Shown: positions 4,529-49,507 of the stretch, piece by piece
How the letters are laid out: each line of letters begins with the position of its first letter
Position numbering within the stretch: the first letter of the stretch is position 1
Sequence record: MF996376
Direction: 5' to 3' (one strand)
Length of the DNA stretch: 49,579 bases
Origin: Escherichia phage SRT8
Translations under genes and position numbers: made by a program
The notes under the pieces: generated by a model
The model's input: only the letters and a program-made list of their open reading frames with translations
What the model was told of the DNA's origin: nothing
Databases searched by the model: none

Positions 4529-5599
4529 TTATAATGCGTGTTTGTACTGATACCTCACCCACTGAGGCGTTTCTAAATCGACTTCAGCCGCGCCGTTAGC
4601 ATATGAAGGCCATACGTCTGATTCTACGCACTCTTTGTATGTGTGAACTACGCTAACGTATTGTGTACGCCCGATTCGAAGCTGTTCCGGCGTCATACGA
4701 TAGCCCATCGGCAAGAATGGTTCCTTCTTCTCTTGAGCAAGGAGGCGGACAACAATCGGGATATTCGGATCTACTCCTTCGAATGCCCCAGCCTGAATTG
4801 CTCGCTTCAGTAAGTCATGCTGTAACGCCATTTTCAAATAGTAGCCGTGGTTAAATGCCAATCGCGGAAACTCCAACGGGTTAGCGCTTGTCGTAGTTTT
4901 GAAGTCGGTAATCACTAGCGCTTCAGGATGAATAACCGTTTCGTAAACCGGATCGCCTTCGTCGGAATAACCAGTCAGCACACGCGCTTCGACGTTCTCG
5001 CGTAAATCTAAGTGATCGAGTCGAACCTTAACCTTCACGCCGGAAATCGTTCCGAAGATTGAAACTTCGTGCATTGCTGTTTCACTGTTGATGCAAGCGT
5101 CATGTTCCGGGATTGATTCAAGAACTTTTCGCATTGTAACGCAAGCGTCGTATGCTTCGGCGTCTACTAACTGCTTGCCTTCTGCCCGCGCTTCGGCTTC
5201 CGCCACCATTTCGATCAGGTATTGAACGTTAAGCATTTCGCCACAATAAACCATCATTTTCAAAAGGTCGGGATACTGCTTCCCTGAAGTACCTTTCAGG
5301 CCGAATGATTTTAACTTAGCGGATAACCCGGCTTGCGACGTGATCAGATCCTTAAACTCGGACGGAGCCGGGCAACGTTTGTAAGTCGCTTCAAACAATT
5401 TTTTGCTTTCGAAGTTCGTGTGCGATTGTGTCCCGAACTCCAGCGCCTTAGTTGTCTGATTCTTCTTAAATCTCCAGTTAGCCGGGCAGGTATTGAAGAT
5501 ATCGGCAAGGCTTGAGCCGCTTACGTACTCCGCCGCCCAACCTTTCGGATCGTGGTATTCGTCGTTGTTAAGCTGTTTGTTGGTGAATACTTTAAACAT
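4529..5599 (-). CDS. PD-(D/E)XK family recombination exonuclease (YqaJ/lambda Exo-like)
   Basis: ITDFKTT motif of the PD-(D/E)XK nuclease core; gene order exonuclease-annealase-SSB; good RBS. Confidence 0.55.
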   Translation of the reverse strand: MFKVFTNKQLNNDEYHDPKGWAAEYVSGSSLADIFNTCPANWRFKKNQTTKALEFGTQSHTNFESKKLFEATYKRCPAPSEFKDLITSQAGLSAKLKSFGLKGTSGKQYPDLLKMMVYCGEMLNVQYLIEMVAEAEARAEGKQLVDAEAYDACVTMRKVLESIPEHDACINSETAMHEVSIFGTISGVKVKVRLDHLDLRENVEARVLTGYSDEGDPVYETVIHPEALVITDFKTTTSANPLEFPRLAFNHGYYLKMALQHDLLKRAIQAGAFEGVDPNIPIVVRLLAQEKKEPFLPMGYRMTPEQLRIGRTQYVSVVHTYKECVESDVWPSYANGAAEVDLETPQWVRYQYKHAL

Positions 5600-6147
5600 T
5601 CGTTTATCTCCTTCGTTGATGATGTGGTCATTATAGCCAGTAGGAACATTTAGTCAACAGTTACGCTGTAATTGTGCGTAATCATTCCTTAGAAAAAATA
5701 CGATTACACAAAATCTCTATGTAATTCAATACTATAAAGCGTGTAAAGTTGCATGTATAAGATGTAAGCTTGTAATCACTCTATAGAGAAATATCAACAT
5801 TCCCCATCGATAACGCATCATTCCATAGAGAATCACTATCAATTTGAACGCATCACAAAAAACACGATTACATCGCTTACATTGATTACATGATAATTAC
5901 ACATATAAAAAACCAATTTAAGATTATTATTATTATCTATATATTATAAGGAGTTAGCGCATATCCGGGCGCTCTATAGCTGCTCAAATTTTGCGCGGAT
6001 TCTGTAATCATTAAAATCGTAGACAAAAATTACACAGATTACACGTAATAGGATTACGGCGTGATTTTTCCGGATCGCACTTTTTGCCAACAATCACGAT
6101 CGCAAACGTGTATAATGCCGATAAGCAAACGAATGGAGGGTTATAGG
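5600..6147. other. AT-rich non-coding hub with short repeats (gattaca-like iterons, TTA x5 tract, tgtataagatgtaagc block)
   Basis: About 550 bp without a credible ORF; shares conserved blocks with the hub at 35990-36700. Confidence 0.6.
6075..6116 (+). promoter_or_regulatory. Palindromic element variant (atcgcactttttgccaa) followed 18 nt later by TATAAT; putative promoter cassette for the lipoprotein gene
   Basis: Same arrangement as the early-gene cassettes. Confidence 0.45.
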
Positions 6148-6375
6148 ATGAAGAAGAAATTTATTGTCGCGGCGATTGCGTTAGCTCTGATTGGTTGTGC
6201 TGATATGCCGAAAAGAACGTGTACCGCTATATACGAATCTAGATCTAACAAATACGAAGTGTATGTGTTCGGAACGAGGCTCAATGGAGGGGAGTTAATG
6301 TTACGCGCCGGATACCCGTTCTCATTTCATTATGTAAACGAAAGGCAATTCACCACTCACGACTGCAAACGATGA
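6148..6375 (+). CDS. Small outer-membrane lipoprotein, Cor-like superinfection-exclusion candidate
   Basis: Signal peptide with lipobox LIGC (MKKKFIVAAIALALIGCAD); 75 aa; own promoter; adjacent to tail genes. Confidence 0.55.
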   Translation: MKKKFIVAAIALALIGCADMPKRTCTAIYESRSNKYEVYVFGTRLNGGELMLRAGYPFSFHYVNERQFTTHDCKR

Positions 6376-25287: not shown

Positions 25288-26859
25288 TTATTTACGCTTT
25301 ACCATTCCGGCTAAACGCTTCATTCGCTCGACAGGATCGTCGATTGTCAGAAGTTCGATGTTCGCCGCATCCATGAAGTTATCGACAATATCGTCGTGCG
25401 GGTGCGTATCGTCGTATGTGAACGCGCTATGCTCGGCGATGATTTCGGACAGCATAGGGTGTTCTTCCGGTAGCACCACACGCCCGGCTTTGATTACTGG
25501 CTGCGCATCCATCGCGCGAGTAACTTTATCTTTGTTACGCTGCAACGGCGTGATAGCAACAGGAGTTTTCTTCTCTAAGTTCTGGATCAAGCCCGTACCG
25601 CTGGCCTTATCTTCGACGTAAATCTTTCTCAGTACCCCCATTGATTTATTATGCCTCCACGCCGCGTTAACGAACGCTTTAAACTGCGTTTCCATTTCCG
25701 GCGCTTTCCATTTGCCGCGAACGCCGTCGATAAAGTACACCTTATCGTTTTTCTTACCCCATAAACAGAAGACAGTGTAGTCGTTTAGCTCGCCTGTTTT
25801 CTGCGCGGTATCGGCGGTAATGAAGCGGTAATCGAACTTGCCCGGTTCTGGTTCGTCGGCTTCTAAGCTGTTGCCGTAGTACGTCCACCACTCGGAATTA
25901 AACACCGCGCCGCCCAGCGCGATCGGACGCTGTTGATACTGCGAATCAAAGGTGTATTGGTCGGCCTCACGTAGCGCCATTAAGTCGTGAACGGTTTCCT
26001 TTTCAGGCCAAAAGCTATAATGCTTAACGCCGTCGATTAGCACGTATTCAGACGAAAGCACATCCTTTTCGAAGTGCGGTTGTAACCATTCAGGAAGTGA
26101 TTTCCCGTATTCCTCAGTTACTAGCGCCGGAATTGAAATCTGATCGAATTCTATCCCCATCCCGCCGTTCATCATGAACCATGTAGAATCCTGTGCGTGT
26201 AAGCGCTGCTGTATGGCGATAATCGGCGTTTCGTTGTGCATTCGTCGGCTTCGGATTGTGTTCTTTAAAAGCGTATGTGTGCGCTCTCGTTTTACCTTAG
26301 AAAACATATCGTCCGGCTTGTCGATATCGTCAAGCATTACCATACCGGAAAAGCCAGGAACCATATAACCGCCACGCGAACCAGTAATGCGACCGCCCGC
26401 CGCCGCTGAAATAAGCTCAAACCAGACCTTTCCCGCATTGTTTAGCACCTGCATTTCTTCATCTTTCGACGTGCCGAACGCGCAAGGCCATAGCTCTTGG
26501 AATTCCGGCGAAGAAATGATTTCGCGGACTCGCTTACTGTTACGCTTTACAAGGCTGTCGGCGAATGACACATTCAAGTTTCTGACCTTCTTCAGCTTCA
26601 GCATTGCATAAACTGGCAAGTGGATCGAAAAGACTTCCGTTTTCCCCGAACCCGGAGTCACGTTAAAGATCGTGTTACCGCGTCGCCCGGCGATAATCTC
26701 TTCGACTTCGTGGCACAAGTAAAGGTGATGCCAGTTAGGTAAAAATTGCTGTGCCTGTATCAACTGGAACCAGATCCGAATCATCTTTTCGAAGCTGGCT
26801 TCCGACATTTTCTTGATCGCAAGCTTTTGTGTTGCGTCCAGTTCTTCCCAAATTAACAT
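25288..26859 (-). CDS. Terminase large subunit
   Basis: 523 aa; N-terminal ATPase with GSGKTE P-loop-like motif and C-terminal nuclease-like half; position before portal. Confidence 0.8.
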   Translation of the reverse strand: MLIWEELDATQKLAIKKMSEASFEKMIRIWFQLIQAQQFLPNWHHLYLCHEVEEIIAGRRGNTIFNVTPGSGKTEVFSIHLPVYAMLKLKKVRNLNVSFADSLVKRNSKRVREIISSPEFQELWPCAFGTSKDEEMQVLNNAGKVWFELISAAAGGRITGSRGGYMVPGFSGMVMLDDIDKPDDMFSKVKRERTHTLLKNTIRSRRMHNETPIIAIQQRLHAQDSTWFMMNGGMGIEFDQISIPALVTEEYGKSLPEWLQPHFEKDVLSSEYVLIDGVKHYSFWPEKETVHDLMALREADQYTFDSQYQQRPIALGGAVFNSEWWTYYGNSLEADEPEPGKFDYRFITADTAQKTGELNDYTVFCLWGKKNDKVYFIDGVRGKWKAPEMETQFKAFVNAAWRHNKSMGVLRKIYVEDKASGTGLIQNLEKKTPVAITPLQRNKDKVTRAMDAQPVIKAGRVVLPEEHPMLSEIIAEHSAFTYDDTHPHDDIVDNFMDAANIELLTIDDPVERMKRLAGMVKRK

Positions 26860-26900: not shown

Positions 26901-27416
26901 TTAGAGCATATCAAGAACGCTGTTTACCGCGTCCTTCATCGCGTCTTCTGTGGTGGCAACAGCCGCCGCGCTCGACGTGTTGTCGATGTTAATCGACGCT
27001 GGCTTGTCGATGCCTAAGTCCTTGCCGATAAACGAAGCGTTAATGATGCCGTTTGCCGCAAGCTGGAATTTCTGTTCGTTGATAACGGAATCGACGAATT
27101 CCATAACTTCGGCATAGTCCGGTTCGGATCTGTACCGCGCGATCGTTCCGTCGCTCAGGTTGCAGAAAAGCTTAAACCCGGTAACGGTAAATACTCGCGG
27201 CTTATGCACTAACGACTCTTCTACATCGCCCTGAAAACTGGCAGTCTCAGCCGCTTTGATTGCGTTGTCTTCCGCCCATTCGAAATACTTAACCGCCAGA
27301 TCGAACAACTGTTTCGGCGTAGTCTGTCGTGTCTTGCCTAACACTGTTCCGAACTCTTTCCGGTATAGCTCTTTGAAGTTACCACCCTGAACGACGGGCG
27401 CTTTTTCCTGTTTCAT
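26901..27416 (-). CDS. Putative terminase small subunit
   Basis: Position directly upstream of TerL; start reassigned to ATG at 27416 with GAGGA RBS. Confidence 0.5.
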   Translation of the reverse strand: MKQEKAPVVQGGNFKELYRKEFGTVLGKTRQTTPKQLFDLAVKYFEWAEDNAIKAAETASFQGDVEESLVHKPRVFTVTGFKLFCNLSDGTIARYRSEPDYAEVMEFVDSVINEQKFQLAANGIINASFIGKDLGIDKPASINIDNTSSAAAVATTEDAMKDAVNSVLDML

Positions 27417-27432
27417 AGATTCGTCCTCACTG

Positions 27433-27450
27433 TTTAACATTTCGTGCTAT
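27433..27450 (-). promoter_or_regulatory. Palindromic element (ATAGCACGAAATGTTAAA) upstream of the TerS RBS, preceded by a TAATAT box and terminator
   Basis: Late-gene arrangement as for J and L. Confidence 0.45.
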
Positions 27451-34465: not shown

Positions 34466-34488
34466 CGTTTTAACAAAAAGTGCTATCG
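34466..34488 (-). promoter_or_regulatory. Palindromic element cassette
   Basis: ATAGCACTTTTTGTTAAAA, hairpin, TATAGT, leader. Confidence 0.5.
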
Positions 34489-35376: not shown

Positions 35377-35396
35377 TTTTTAGCAATTCGTGCTAT
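35377..35396 (-). promoter_or_regulatory. Palindromic element cassette
   Basis: ATAGCACGAATTGCTAAAA plus hairpin GCCCGGCAC/GGAGTCGGGC. Confidence 0.55.
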
Positions 35397-35986
35397 TCTG
35401 CGACTTCTTCGTTTTTACCTCTCAGGGCTTCGACGTGATTTCGAAATTCTTCTAGCAATTGCCTTGCCGTCGATAACTCTTCGTCGTCGTACTTCGTGAA
35501 GTCGGGAACCCACAACGCCAGCGCATTAAATCGAACCGTGTCGATATGCTCACCAGATTGAACAGAATCAGCCTGGACAACCGGAACCGCTTTCGCCTTA
35601 CGTGTGCGGGCGGGCTTCTCGATCGGTTCGTCAGACAGCGTGACCGACACTAAGATTTCGTCGTCTTCATCCCGGCTAAGTGAGATCGCACAATCAAAGC
35701 CAGCTTTCGCAACGTGGCGCTTGATAGTCGGCGCGATGTACGGCGATTTCATCTTCAGGCGCAACAGGCCGTTGTACTGATCCCGGAAGACTCGCGCGTC
35801 GTCGTCCAATTCGTCTTCAGTGCGGGTGACGCCGTGTTCCTCATACTGCAACCGGGCGGCTTCAATCAGCATTTGCAATTCGGTGAAGCTGAATTCCCGT
35901 TCGCCAGCCTGAATCTTCAGCGTGACGATGTGGCGAAGCATTGCGGCGATGTTCGGTTCATTTGCGGAAGGTAGTTTAGTTGACAT
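35393..35986 (-). CDS. First gene of the leftward early operon; acidic hypothetical protein
   Basis: 197 aa, Asp/Glu-rich; strong RBS directly next to the AT-rich hub. Confidence 0.5.
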   Translation of the reverse strand: MSTKLPSANEPNIAAMLRHIVTLKIQAGEREFSFTELQMLIEAARLQYEEHGVTRTEDELDDDARVFRDQYNGLLRLKMKSPYIAPTIKRHVAKAGFDCAISLSRDEDDEILVSVTLSDEPIEKPARTRKAKAVPVVQADSVQSGEHIDTVRFNALALWVPDFTKYDDEELSTARQLLEEFRNHVEALRGKNEEVAE

Positions 35987-36429
35987 GGTTGTTTCTCCTG
36001 ATTGGTTTATGCAGACTTAGACAAAGATTGCACGTTGTATAAGCGCGTAATAATATCTTATTTTTTTGCTTTAGACAACACAATCCAGTAGCGACGCGCG
36101 TCACAAGGCTGTAAACATGCTTGTATAAGATGTATAAGATGTAAGCCCCCATAGAGATATTTAAGCATATGCGCATAAAACACTGTATATATACACAGAA
36201 AATCGCAATATATCAAATTTCACCCTTACATATAATACAAGTTTGACACGCTCTATATACAACAGCGTTTCTACTATATAAAAGCTAATTTAAAACTTAT
36301 TATTATTATATATATCATATAGTTAGCGCTAAACAGGCAGCTCCATGGGGTTGCTCACTTTTGCACCAATTTGTCTAAGTGACAAATCTAGCAAATTTTA
36401 GACAAGGATTACAAGCGTAATTTAGACAC

Positions 36430-36449
36430 GTAGCACGAATTGCTAAAAG
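36430..36449 (+). promoter_or_regulatory. Orphan palindromic element cassette (motif plus hairpin with TATAAC) not followed by a gene
   Basis: gTAGCACGAATTGCTAAAAg then GGGGA...TCCCC hairpin; no ATG with RBS downstream. Confidence 0.45.
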
Positions 36450-36623
36450 TTGGAGGGGAAGACCGTTTCACTCTATAACCTCTCCCCATTTTAATGCTTC
36501 ACAAGCAACAATCATCGCGATTGCGAACAATCACGCAATAATCATAACTTGTCATTTGCAATCATGAGTAATCACTCATTATTCCAGTTATTCCAATCTG
36601 AAGGAATAATCGTATCGGATCAG

Positions 36624-36642
36624 GAATAGCACTTTTTGCAAC
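36624..36642 (+). promoter_or_regulatory. Palindromic element cassette for the first rightward early gene
   Basis: AATAGCACTTTTTGCAACA, then TGgTATAGT, then leader ATCGAAACGAAGGAGA. Confidence 0.55.
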
Positions 36643-36698
36643 ACATCTGGCGGGTAGAGTTGGTATAGTTACTTCATCGAAACGAAGGAGATACAGAA

Positions 36699-36989
36699 AT
36701 GACCACTATCAGCAAAACGACAATCAACTTTGCACGCAAGCGCGGTTTAGACGTTACGATCGAGAACGTTGGCGAAGGTGACTTTATGGCGGTGTGGGAT
36801 CTGAATAATGATTGCGAATGGATGTTCACATATCAGGTCAATGATAACGGTTCATTCACTTATAACGGTAATGTGTGGTTGCCGGAAGATTTGAAAGAAG
36901 AGTTGCCCGGCACACTGAAAGATGAAAAGCACGTTCGCGAAATGCTGGCTTACATCGGCGCTAACCGTCACTTGTGGAAAGACTTATGA
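36699..36989 (+). CDS. Hypothetical protein (first rightward early gene)
   Basis: ORF with AAGGAG RBS. Confidence 0.5.
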   Translation: MTTISKTTINFARKRGLDVTIENVGEGDFMAVWDLNNDCEWMFTYQVNDNGSFTYNGNVWLPEDLKEELPGTLKDEKHVREMLAYIGANRHLWKDL

Positions 36990-39629: not shown

Positions 39630-41195
39630 ATGCTTTTCGGTAAACCTAAACTTTCAGTTAGTCAAATCATTGAAATCGCAAATACGAACGGGATTAACCC
39701 GGTCGCGTTAGCCATTCGTGAGAACGGCTATCCTGATTCTCGATCGTTCTGGAGTCAGCCGGAACAGATTAACAGCGGAAACGATCAATTCCCGCTTATC
39801 TCTATTGCTGGCGACAACATCGTTTACGAATACGCGAAAGCAAAGGCTGAATCCGTCCAATTCCCTGTTTCGTCTGCCTACGCGCATTTTATCGGCTGTA
39901 TGTCCGCCGCCATGCTGGGGCGCTTTTGGGTGGAGTATCACGGCGAAGAACAACCTACCGCGCTTTACATGGTAATTAGCCAGCCGCCGTCTACTGGTAA
40001 ATCTGCGATTAACTCCGCCGCGATTAACCCAATGCGATCCGAAATTGACCGCATTAACGAAGCACGAAAGGCCGAACGTTCGCGCCTGATGGGGCAACTT
40101 CGCAACGTCGAACGCGAGATCAAGAACGACGTAAAAGGCAATTCAGCCGTAGCGCTTTACGAAGAAAAAGAGAAGTTAGAAGAGAAGATCAAGAAAATGG
40201 CTAACGTCGTGTTTGCTGTATCCGATCCAACTCCTGAAGGCTTGGCGAAGGTTGCAGCCGCGCAAGGTAACTTCTCCGTAATCTCGGACGAAGCAACGGC
40301 GATAAATACGCTTCTTGGCTTGACGTATGGCGGAACCGACAAGAAGGCGAACAGTGAACTAATCCTTAAAGCGTGGGATATGAACCACATGGAAGTAGCG
40401 CGTTCCAATCAGGATAACAACCTGTCGATTCGTCCCGTTGGCGCGATCTGCGTTATTGCTCAGGATGAAACTATACGCGGGATTATGGACGCCGGGCAAC
40501 GTGGGATCGGGGTATCGGAACGTTTCTTGCTAGTTCGTGAAGAGCCGTTGTTAGGTACGCGCACACTTTGCGACGAAAACGGCGACGCGGTATATAAGCC
40601 AGTAGAGCAATCGTTAGTTAGCAAATATTATCGCTTGATTCACAATATCATGAAGGAAGAGAAAGTCGTATTCACGCTAAACCGGAACGCGAACCGGGCG
40701 CTTAACTTGGCGCGTCAGGAAATGGAATCCAGCTTCGCGGCGGGCGGGCGTTATTCGCACTCTATGTTACGCGGTCATTTAGGCAAGTTCGATAAACACG
40801 TTATCCGTATCGCTTCAGTGCTTCACGCGATCCGTAACTGGACAGGTGAAAACCCGAACCGGGCAAACCGTGAGATCGATTTAGACACAATGCAGGAAGC
40901 GATCATGATATTCAACGAACTGTCGAAAACGTATCTGTCGTCGGCGAACGCGGCGGGCTTTGCAGGTGACGAAGCCGAATCCCGCAAGCTGTCGGAAGTG
41001 ATTACGGAAATGGCGCGTCGTTCAAAAGGTCGTGTACAGATCCACAGCCTGATTTCGAAGTGTCGCAACATTACCCCGTTCAACGGACAACAGAAGGTCG
41101 GCGAACGTATCGAAACGCTGTTGATTGAGTTAGAGCGAATGAACCATGTTTGCGTAGTTGACGACGTTGTTTATGTGAATCCATGTTTCCTATAA
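39630..41195 (+). CDS. P-loop ATPase, putative primase/helicase-type replication protein
   Basis: Walker A-like SQPPSTGKS; 521 aa; largest early gene. Confidence 0.5.
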   Translation: MLFGKPKLSVSQIIEIANTNGINPVALAIRENGYPDSRSFWSQPEQINSGNDQFPLISIAGDNIVYEYAKAKAESVQFPVSSAYAHFIGCMSAAMLGRFWVEYHGEEQPTALYMVISQPPSTGKSAINSAAINPMRSEIDRINEARKAERSRLMGQLRNVEREIKNDVKGNSAVALYEEKEKLEEKIKKMANVVFAVSDPTPEGLAKVAAAQGNFSVISDEATAINTLLGLTYGGTDKKANSELILKAWDMNHMEVARSNQDNNLSIRPVGAICVIAQDETIRGIMDAGQRGIGVSERFLLVREEPLLGTRTLCDENGDAVYKPVEQSLVSKYYRLIHNIMKEEKVVFTLNRNANRALNLARQEMESSFAAGGRYSHSMLRGHLGKFDKHVIRIASVLHAIRNWTGENPNRANREIDLDTMQEAIMIFNELSKTYLSSANAAGFAGDEAESRKLSEVITEMARRSKGRVQIHSLISKCRNITPFNGQQKVGERIETLLIELERMNHVCVVDDVVYVNPCFL

Positions 41196-49455: not shown

Positions 49456-49507
49456 ACACGCATTGACGAAACAGTTTTAACAAAAAATGCTATTGAGGAA
49501 TTTACTA

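Follow-up and report, generated by a model that had tools for sequence, protein, structure and literature searches.

The 712-bp intergenic stretch at positions 35987-36698 of Escherichia phage SRT8 (the window being the whole sequence analysed, record MF996376, 49,579 nucleotides) is a conserved, multi-part cis-acting hub typical of T1-like phages. We favour, with moderate confidence, a combined reading in which this hub holds early promoters together with the packaging site (pac) and packaging proceeds leftward. Hubs of this kind have been described at low resolution in T1 and TLS. What is new here is its motif-level anatomy, namely a ladder of short repeats, a set of operator-like repeats, the architecture of a repeated cassette and a paralogous hub elsewhere in the genome.

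The initial annotation had described the region as ORF-free and divergent, and this description holds, with 712 bp between a leftward and a rightward gene:

35393-35986, minus strand: left flanking gene, 197 aa, DUF7174
36699-36989, plus strand: right flanking gene, 96 aa, a PHROG without known function

The GC content of the intergenic stretch is 0.36, compared to about 0.48 genome-wide. The ORFs inside it are solely AT-rich, minus-strand frames of 33-66 aa, which are unlikely to be genes because phage BrunoManser carries single-base indels there. By nucleotide identity to its relatives, SRT8 is a T1-like phage (Drexlerviridae, Tunavirinae, Sertoctavirus). The 3 kb around the region share 96% identity with Citrobacter phage IME-JL8 and 92% with Escherichia phage BrunoManser (Bas12; 88-92% overall), both of which belong to Sertoctavirus. 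This kinship leads us to expect T1-type biology, meaning the use of host RNA polymerase and headful (pac) packaging. The gene blocks on either side are transcribed outward from the region and are presumed to be early.

The part of the region next to the leftward operon and the motif cluster further right contain the following features:

35987-36049, minus strand: 5' leader of the leftward operon, including TTAGACA copy 1 at 36017
35999-35995, minus strand: Shine-Dalgarno AGGAG within the family-typical ACCAATCAGGAG leader
36078-36050, minus strand: leftward sigma70-like promoter candidate TTGTCT-17-TATTAT, score 10.8
36368-36430, no strand assigned: TTAGACA/ATTAC motif cluster TTTGTCTAAGTGACAAATC...TTAGACAAGGATTACAAGCGTAATTTAGACA, 99% identity with BrunoManser

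The hexamers of the leftward promoter candidate are identical in IME-JL8 and BrunoManser, i.e. in all three Sertoctaviruses, and TLS has its predicted promoter P01 at the syntenic place. Its -35 hexamer is the reverse complement of the TTAGACA copy 2 (36071), and leaders of the ACCAATCAGGAG type are also found behind other cassettes. The TTAGACA motif is strongly concentrated in the region, as five of its seven genome copies fall within 412 bp (36017-36428; about 0.03 expected). Repeats resembling ttagacaa had been reported at 36017, 36071, 36398 and 36422, and all four are present on the plus strand; a fifth, inverted copy at 36372 had been overlooked. The TTAGACA/ATTAC cluster probably represents sites of a DNA-binding protein. 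A related GTAAT/GTCAC cluster is carried by IME347 and T1, and a paralogous block lies in the second hub described below (hub B). TTAGACA was also considered as the -35 of rightward promoters and rejected, there being no usable -10 at 16-18 nt.

Rightward transcription would start from cassettes marked by an ATAGCAC box. The corresponding motif ATAGCACnnnTTGnTAAAA occurs 32 times genome-wide against 1.7 expected, and always in the orientation of the local genes. When the copies are aligned, a spacer of 19 nt separates the box from a -10-like hexamer (often TATAGT), which is followed by a C/A-rich leader ATCAACAAC..., a Shine-Dalgarno sequence and an ATG. The -10-like hexamer lies 18-20 nt past the box in 24 of 30 copies, and about half of these hexamers have TG upstream. 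In approximately 20 copies a G-rich/C-rich hairpin surrounds or abuts the -10, with arms such as GGGGTA/TACCCC, GGGCTT/AAGCCC and AGCCCA/TGGGCT, for example at 34468 (minus), 38548 (plus) and 43644 (minus). Since the arms differ in sequence and yet stay complementary, selection appears to act on this hairpin. The TTGnTA of the box is not a standard sigma70 -35, because 22 nt separate it from the -10. Two such cassettes lie in the region:

36430-36487, plus strand: orphan cassette P2, box GTAGCACGAATTGCTAAAA with 1 mismatch
36452-36458 and 36479-36485: P2 hairpin GGAGGGG / CCTCTCC
36626-36698, plus strand: cassette P1, box ATAGCACTTTTTGCAACAC with 3 mismatches
36661-36669, plus strand: P1 extended -10 TGgTATAGT, 19 nt past the box
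36684-36690, plus strand: Shine-Dalgarno GAAGGAG of P1, whose leader has the stem CTTCATCGAAACGAAG

Cassette P1 shows both the start-codon distance of the family (about 70-80 nt; here 73 nt from the box start to the start codon at 36699) and its -10 spacing. P2 shows neither, as its TATAAC lies 25 nt past the box, where 19 nt is the rule, and it has no gene behind it. The P2 hairpin is decayed in IME-JL8 and BrunoManser. P2 is found in T1, IME347 and EF3-1 and is absent from TLS, SU57 and PhiKpNIH-2. The suggestion that the region combines several promoters is borne out at the level of predicted sites: besides the two rightward cassettes, it contains 3 of the 22 best sigma70-like sites of the genome (score of at least 10).

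The ATAGCAC box, with about 30 copies in SRT8, is the same element as the 21-nt intergenic direct repeat aaATAGCACnnnTTGnTAAAA of TLS, which has also been noted in T1, Rtp and Rogue1 at about 76 nt upstream of start codons, and for which the authors left open whether it acts as a stoperator, an enhancer or an UP element (PMC11447400). In comparison with the TLS and T1 repeats, P2 of SRT8 lacks a gene and the P1 box is degenerate. Because a -10-like hexamer is fixed 19 nt downstream, we read the 21-nt repeat as part of a putative promoter cassette with an unusual 22-nt gap. The cassette also extends beyond the family. Specifically, 66 bp of P1 match about 100 T4-like Klebsiella and Enterobacter phages, and positions 1501-1566 of Klebsiella phage KP15, which align with SRT8 36625-36690, contain a complete cassette annotated in KP15 as a 'putative middle promoter'. 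The version found in T4-like phages comprises the ATAGCAC box, 19 nt, TATAGT in a GGGGTA/TACCCC hairpin, and a ATCGAAAC leader. To judge from these sequence matches, an exchange of cassettes between unrelated phage families is suggested. A comparable arrangement is known from the mobile PeSL cassettes of T4-like phages, in which a TTGACA-N17-TATAAT promoter has a stem-loop alongside (PMC2839356, PMC4122927). Both are repeated units of a promoter and a G-rich/C-rich stem-loop placed tightly between small genes; however, the hairpin of the SRT8 family encloses or abuts the -10, and its upstream box is 22 nt away.

The interval between P2 and P1 measures 196 bp, of which about 140 bp are gene-less, and carries the features on which the packaging reading is based:

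36456-36579, no strand assigned: putative pac region, to which genome ends of relatives map and which contains the ladder
36509-36523: inverted repeat CAATC/GATTG, containing the palindrome ATCGCGAT
36521-36538: inverted repeat TTGCG-N8-CGCAA
36564-36579: inverted repeat ATGAGT-aatc-ACTCAT
36578-36585 with 36603-36610: inverted repeat ATTATTCC with GGAATAAT
36580 and 36589 / 36603 and 36623 (within 36580-36628): two copies each of TATTCCA / GGAATA, invariant in 12 sequences

This interval is conserved at the DNA level in other genera (77-79% in IME347, and also in EF3-1 and Webervirus), whereas the flanking genes have no DNA-level match there. Its segment 36486-36625 is considered non-coding, because the relatives have indels and no common ORF. 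A 21-aa ORF at 36564-36629 (MSNHSLFQLFQSEGIIVSDQE) was rejected as a gene: it has no Shine-Dalgarno sequence, it is lost in EF3-1, T1 and PhiKpNIH-2, and its start, frame and stop are matched in IME347 only. Both EF3-1 and PhiKpNIH-2 lack its ATG, and PhiKpNIH-2 has single-base indels in addition.

One element of the interval is the ladder, which extends from 36505 to 36575. Its ATCA cores at 36511, 36530, 36541, 36561 and 36571 are phase-locked at 10 bp (R = 0.97, p ~0.001), and their density is equalled at only one other place in the genome. The exact sequence GCAAYAATCA has two copies genome-wide, at 36505 and 36535, which are 30 bp apart. Across genera the ATCA cores are invariant, while the bases between them vary. 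The periodicity of the conservation profile over 12 sequences shows a broad peak at 9.5-11 bp and is not significant at 10-10.5 bp (p = 0.07). AATCA as such is over-represented throughout the genome (231 occurrences against 129 expected, both strands), an excess due in part to the ACCAATCAGGAG-type leaders that stand before many genes.

To the right of the ladder, the TATTCCA/GGAATA repeats probably form an operator; the copy of GGAATA at 36623 overlaps the P1 box. At the position of these repeats, about 10-40 nt upstream of the repeat DR18 (AY308796), TLS has AGACCAATCGGTCT twice, as a pair of tandem 14-bp palindromes (TAGACCAATCGGTC). These palindromes resemble an operator that is specific to the TLS lineage and sits at a conserved place. 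The four closely spaced inverted repeats noted initially between 36480 and 36620 are all found in the sequence. Their conservation in relatives is only partial, as the TATTCC/GGAATA pair is kept outside the genus and none of the other three is found in IME347, T1 or EF3-1.

The assignment of pac to this segment, which the initial annotation had not linked to packaging, is based mainly on where the genomes of relatives end. The segment homologous to the pac of relatives is rich in repeats and spans 36456-36620. In the TLS paper, pac was mapped by a submolar 6-kb pac-HindIII fragment and a 2.7-kb pac-EcoRV fragment. We confirmed a HindIII site at 5876 and an EcoRV site at 2733 in the TLS record. 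That record begins (position 1) within an AATCA array of the homologous intergenic region, about 120 bp upstream of the TLS P1 box. The TLS fragments therefore indicate packaging toward gp01 and terS, which corresponds to leftward in SRT8. For SU57, the genome end was determined by PhageTerm and by an abrupt step in read depth, and it falls about 163 bp upstream of the SU57 P1 box. The T1 reference record breaks inside the ladder, at the equivalent of SRT8 36539/36540. Pattern scans of IMG/VR yielded 12 relatives, mostly isolate genomes, with the TATTCCA motif, and half of these (6 of 12) are linearised 39, 70, 93 or 123 nt upstream of it. The break at 123 nt, in IME347, is a raw Newbler contig end, and the records that break at 39 nt were probably copied from T1. 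Altogether, at least four distinct end positions fall within about 90 bp of 50-kb genomes, and this scatter is what imprecise cutting at pac would produce. The records of SRT8, IME-JL8 and BrunoManser open elsewhere, outside the hub.

The gene content and the uniqueness of the segment agree with this assignment. The small terminase (26901-27440, 179 aa) matches PF16677 GP3_package with E = 1.8e-10, and the large terminase (25288-26859) has a Terminase_6C nuclease domain. A self-BLAST returned no second copy of 36456-36625, and GCAAYAATCA occurs at 36505 and 36535 only. Phages P22 and Sf6, the best-studied phages of the gp3 family, have pac within the small-terminase gene. We count it against our reading that the putative pac of SRT8 is about 9 kb from its small-terminase gene. 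Several caveats on the pac evidence keep our confidence in the combined reading at a moderate level: the data come from relatives, some of the records are copies, the conservation periodicity has a p-value of 0.07, the distance to P1 is fixed, and the TLS match is weak. Regarding this last point, the TLS pac nucleotide was picked by a weak AGATTT match to the pac of P22, and the gel mapping is accurate to roughly +/-100 bp. An 8-mer of the P22 pac, ATCTGAAG, is present at 36596-36603 of SRT8 and also in SU57; it was dismissed as probably due to chance, being absent in BrunoManser, IME347 and T1.

The resemblance to the non-coding pac region of T1 and TLS concerns the overall layout. In each case a syntenic, divergent intergenic region of about 700-780 bp separates two operons of small ORFs and contains a P1 cassette, an AT-rich (TTA)n/(TA)n core and an AATCA-type array. 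The phages belong to different genera and their repeats differ from those of SRT8, TLS having AATCAAATCA and AGACCAATCGGTCT and T1 having GTTAATCGT tandem repeats. Furthermore, pac was located in TLS by restriction mapping and is predicted from sequence in SRT8. In the literature the TLS pac consists of AGATTT only, and the ladder is not part of it. A parallel for the ladder exists outside the family. The pac sites of phage P1 and SPP1 contain several short repeats (TGATCA/G hexamers in phage P1) over 100-160 bp round the cleavage zone, and the small terminase is thought to assemble on these repeats. Compared with these pac sites, the repeat sequence and the terminase family of SRT8 differ, and the GATC/Dam motif is not conserved, one GATC being present at 36618.

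The left and central part of the region has a different character:

36122-36145, no strand assigned: tandem 9-mers (iteron-like), TGTATAAGA x2.4
36183-36198, no strand assigned: near-palindrome CTGTATATATACACAG
36226-36332, no strand assigned: AT-rich core, including (TTA)4, two sigma70-like sites and the AGTTAGCGC block
36290-36318, plus strand: sigma70-like site TTAAAA-17-TATCAT, back-to-back with the minus-strand site
36333-36305, minus strand: sigma70-like site TTTAGC-17-TATAAT, back-to-back with the plus-strand site

The 100 bp at 36226-36325 are the least stable of the genome (dG -106.6 compared to a mean of -140.7, sd 7.3, i.e. 4.7 sd below). The core is nearly identical across the three Sertoctaviruses, and a (TTA)n/(TA)n tract is present in IME347, SU57, T1 and TLS as well. 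Such a tract had been described at 36298 as five copies of TTA; it exists, but it amounts to (TTA)4.3 and spans 36297-36309. The back-to-back sites in the core may give extra transcription starts. At the same relative place as the TGTATAAGA repeats, T1 has GTTAATCGT x2.9 and TLS has TGTTCACG x2. The core of the near-palindrome, ACTGTATATATA, is retained in T1 and BrunoManser, and IME347 has a ACTGTATAAATG version.

A self-comparison revealed a diverged, collinear paralogue of the AT-rich core in hub B (5600-6148), between recE (4529-5599, minus strand) and cor (6148-6375, plus strand); in the operon next to hub B, recE is followed downstream by erf and ssb. Positions 36105-36346 align with 5737-5977 at 64% identity (E = 2e-7). 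The two copies have in common ATGTATAAGATGTAAGC, the (TTA)4 core, AGTTAGCGC and TAGACAAnnATTACA, and hub B contains the second least stable site of the genome (5857-5956). The core of hub B was found in Sertoctavirus only, unlike the part with the recE promoter (5600-5683, TTGACT-16-TATAAT), which is common to other Tunavirinae. Hub B is also rich in GATTAC/GTAATC motifs and contains the second dense ATCA cluster of the genome, at 5775-5835.

Part of the evidence from the P2-P1 interval would also fit a purely transcriptional view of the region. The ladder and the TATTCCA/GGAATA repeats would then serve P1 and P2 as an operator or activator array, to which an early protein of the phage or a nucleoid protein of the host would bind, with pac located elsewhere nearby or the ends merely falling here. 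We regard this as a possible but lesser contender. The ladder would also suit an upstream regulatory array, because it keeps a constant spacing from the P1 box across Sertoctavirus, Badaguanvirus, Tunavirus and Webervirus. The overlap of the last GGAATA with the P1 box and the two 14-bp palindromes of TLS at the same place, which are typical of operators, also fit this view. However, it leaves unexplained why the ends of TLS, SU57, T1, IME347 and two contigs lie in one 90-bp stretch, and no regulator candidate was found, the flanking genes being the DUF7174 gene and the PHROG without known function. It is highly improbable, in our judgement, that the product of 36486-36625 is a functional RNA (a structured leader, or a small RNA from P2) in which the inverted repeats form hairpins. 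A promoter-like cassette, P2, does stand directly upstream, and the segment 36486-36640 folds better than its shuffled versions (z = -3.06; 0 of 200 as good). Yet the opposite strand folds equally well (z = -3.08; 2 of 200), from which it follows that the symmetry sits at the DNA level. The consensus fold of six phages consists of the invariant TATTCC/GGAATA pairing only, with 0 compensatory pairs, and three of the hairpins are missing in IME347, T1 and EF3-1. Moreover, P2 has no canonically spaced -10, and its hairpin shows decay. Neither did a search of the region against Rfam 15 at a permissive threshold yield a family match, the best hit being a snoRNA model attributable to chance (21 bits against a gathering score of 48, E = 0.83); a tRNA search of the region found none.

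A replication origin, which the initial annotation had also suggested for the region, could lie in its left and central part; this would be compatible with an adjoining pac, and we view this proposal as tentative and on balance unlikely. The tandem TGTATAAGA repeats would be the binding sites of a phage initiator, such as the helicase/primase-type DUF3987 protein (39630-41195), and the adjoining core would melt, perhaps aided by transcription from its promoters. We keep an origin under consideration because tandem repeats adjoin DNA that melts easily and because there is a diverged second copy upstream of recE. Palindromes on either side of the core and the divergence of transcription from the region are likewise in its favour, as is the presence, at corresponding places in T1, TLS and SRT8, of tandem 8-9-mers that differ in sequence. 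Within the family, no rival candidate for an origin is known. Lambda ori is an origin of the iteron-plus-AT-rich type. The SRT8 candidate resembles such origins in having tandem direct repeats by the most easily melted DNA, with a repeat sequence that varies among related phages, but it has only 2-3 short copies, and Tandem Repeats Finder (TRF) detected none in SU57 or IME347. It also lacks DnaA boxes: none matching TTATCCACA with up to one mismatch was found in 35987-36698, and the genome-wide number, 9, equals the expected 9. GC skew was rejected as an origin marker, since it follows the gene strand and is therefore confounded by gene orientation. The restriction of the hub B core to Sertoctavirus argues against an origin as well. 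Strong sigma70-like sites lie in the core, and promoter function alone could for this reason account for its AT-richness and conservation. The TLS and SU57 papers found no origin, and in the literature on T1-like phages we found neither experimental origin mapping nor a transcriptome. An even more speculative and less probable extension is that the core and the tandem 9-mers are the replication origin of T1-like phages, beside pac, and that hub B (5.7-6.0 kb) is a second origin in Sertoctavirus. If true, this would amount to a T4-like, transcription-coupled multi-origin arrangement, with the second origin upstream of the recE-erf-ssb recombination operon.

Returning to the combination of early promoters and pac, we infer promoter activity, terminase binding and the cut positions in SRT8 from the motifs, their conservation and the genome-end positions observed in relatives. 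Host RNA polymerase would start the leftward small-gene operon at the sigma70-type promoter 36078-36050 and the rightward operon at cassette P1 (36626-36669), while additional starts may come from P2 and the back-to-back sites of the core. The probable operator is the set of TATTCCA/GGAATA repeats overlapping the P1 box. The 140 gene-less base pairs that separate the two cassettes would be pac; there, on concatemeric DNA, the small terminase of the gp3 family is predicted to recognise the GCAAYAATCA/ATCA ladder with its helical phasing. The terminase would then cut within approximately 36456-36540, and leftward filling of the first head would run across the left operon and on through the terminase and structural genes.

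T1-like phages count as classic models. They are also notorious as contaminants in laboratories, carry out generalised transduction and are candidates for therapy, and their pac and origin lack a definition at the nucleotide level. The present analysis narrows the putative pac to a ladder of about 120 bp with named motifs, assigns the 21-nt repeat to a putative promoter cassette with a fixed -10, and indicates two origin candidates. These assignments may be of use in phage engineering, in the prediction of transduction, and in orienting and annotating the many Drexlerviridae genomes.

Lastly, the ends of the contig (49414-49579 and 1-436) would, if circularly closed, form a third divergent intergenic region. 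It has outward-facing cassette boxes at 49475 on the minus strand, before a SNF2-type helicase gene, and at 361 on the plus strand.
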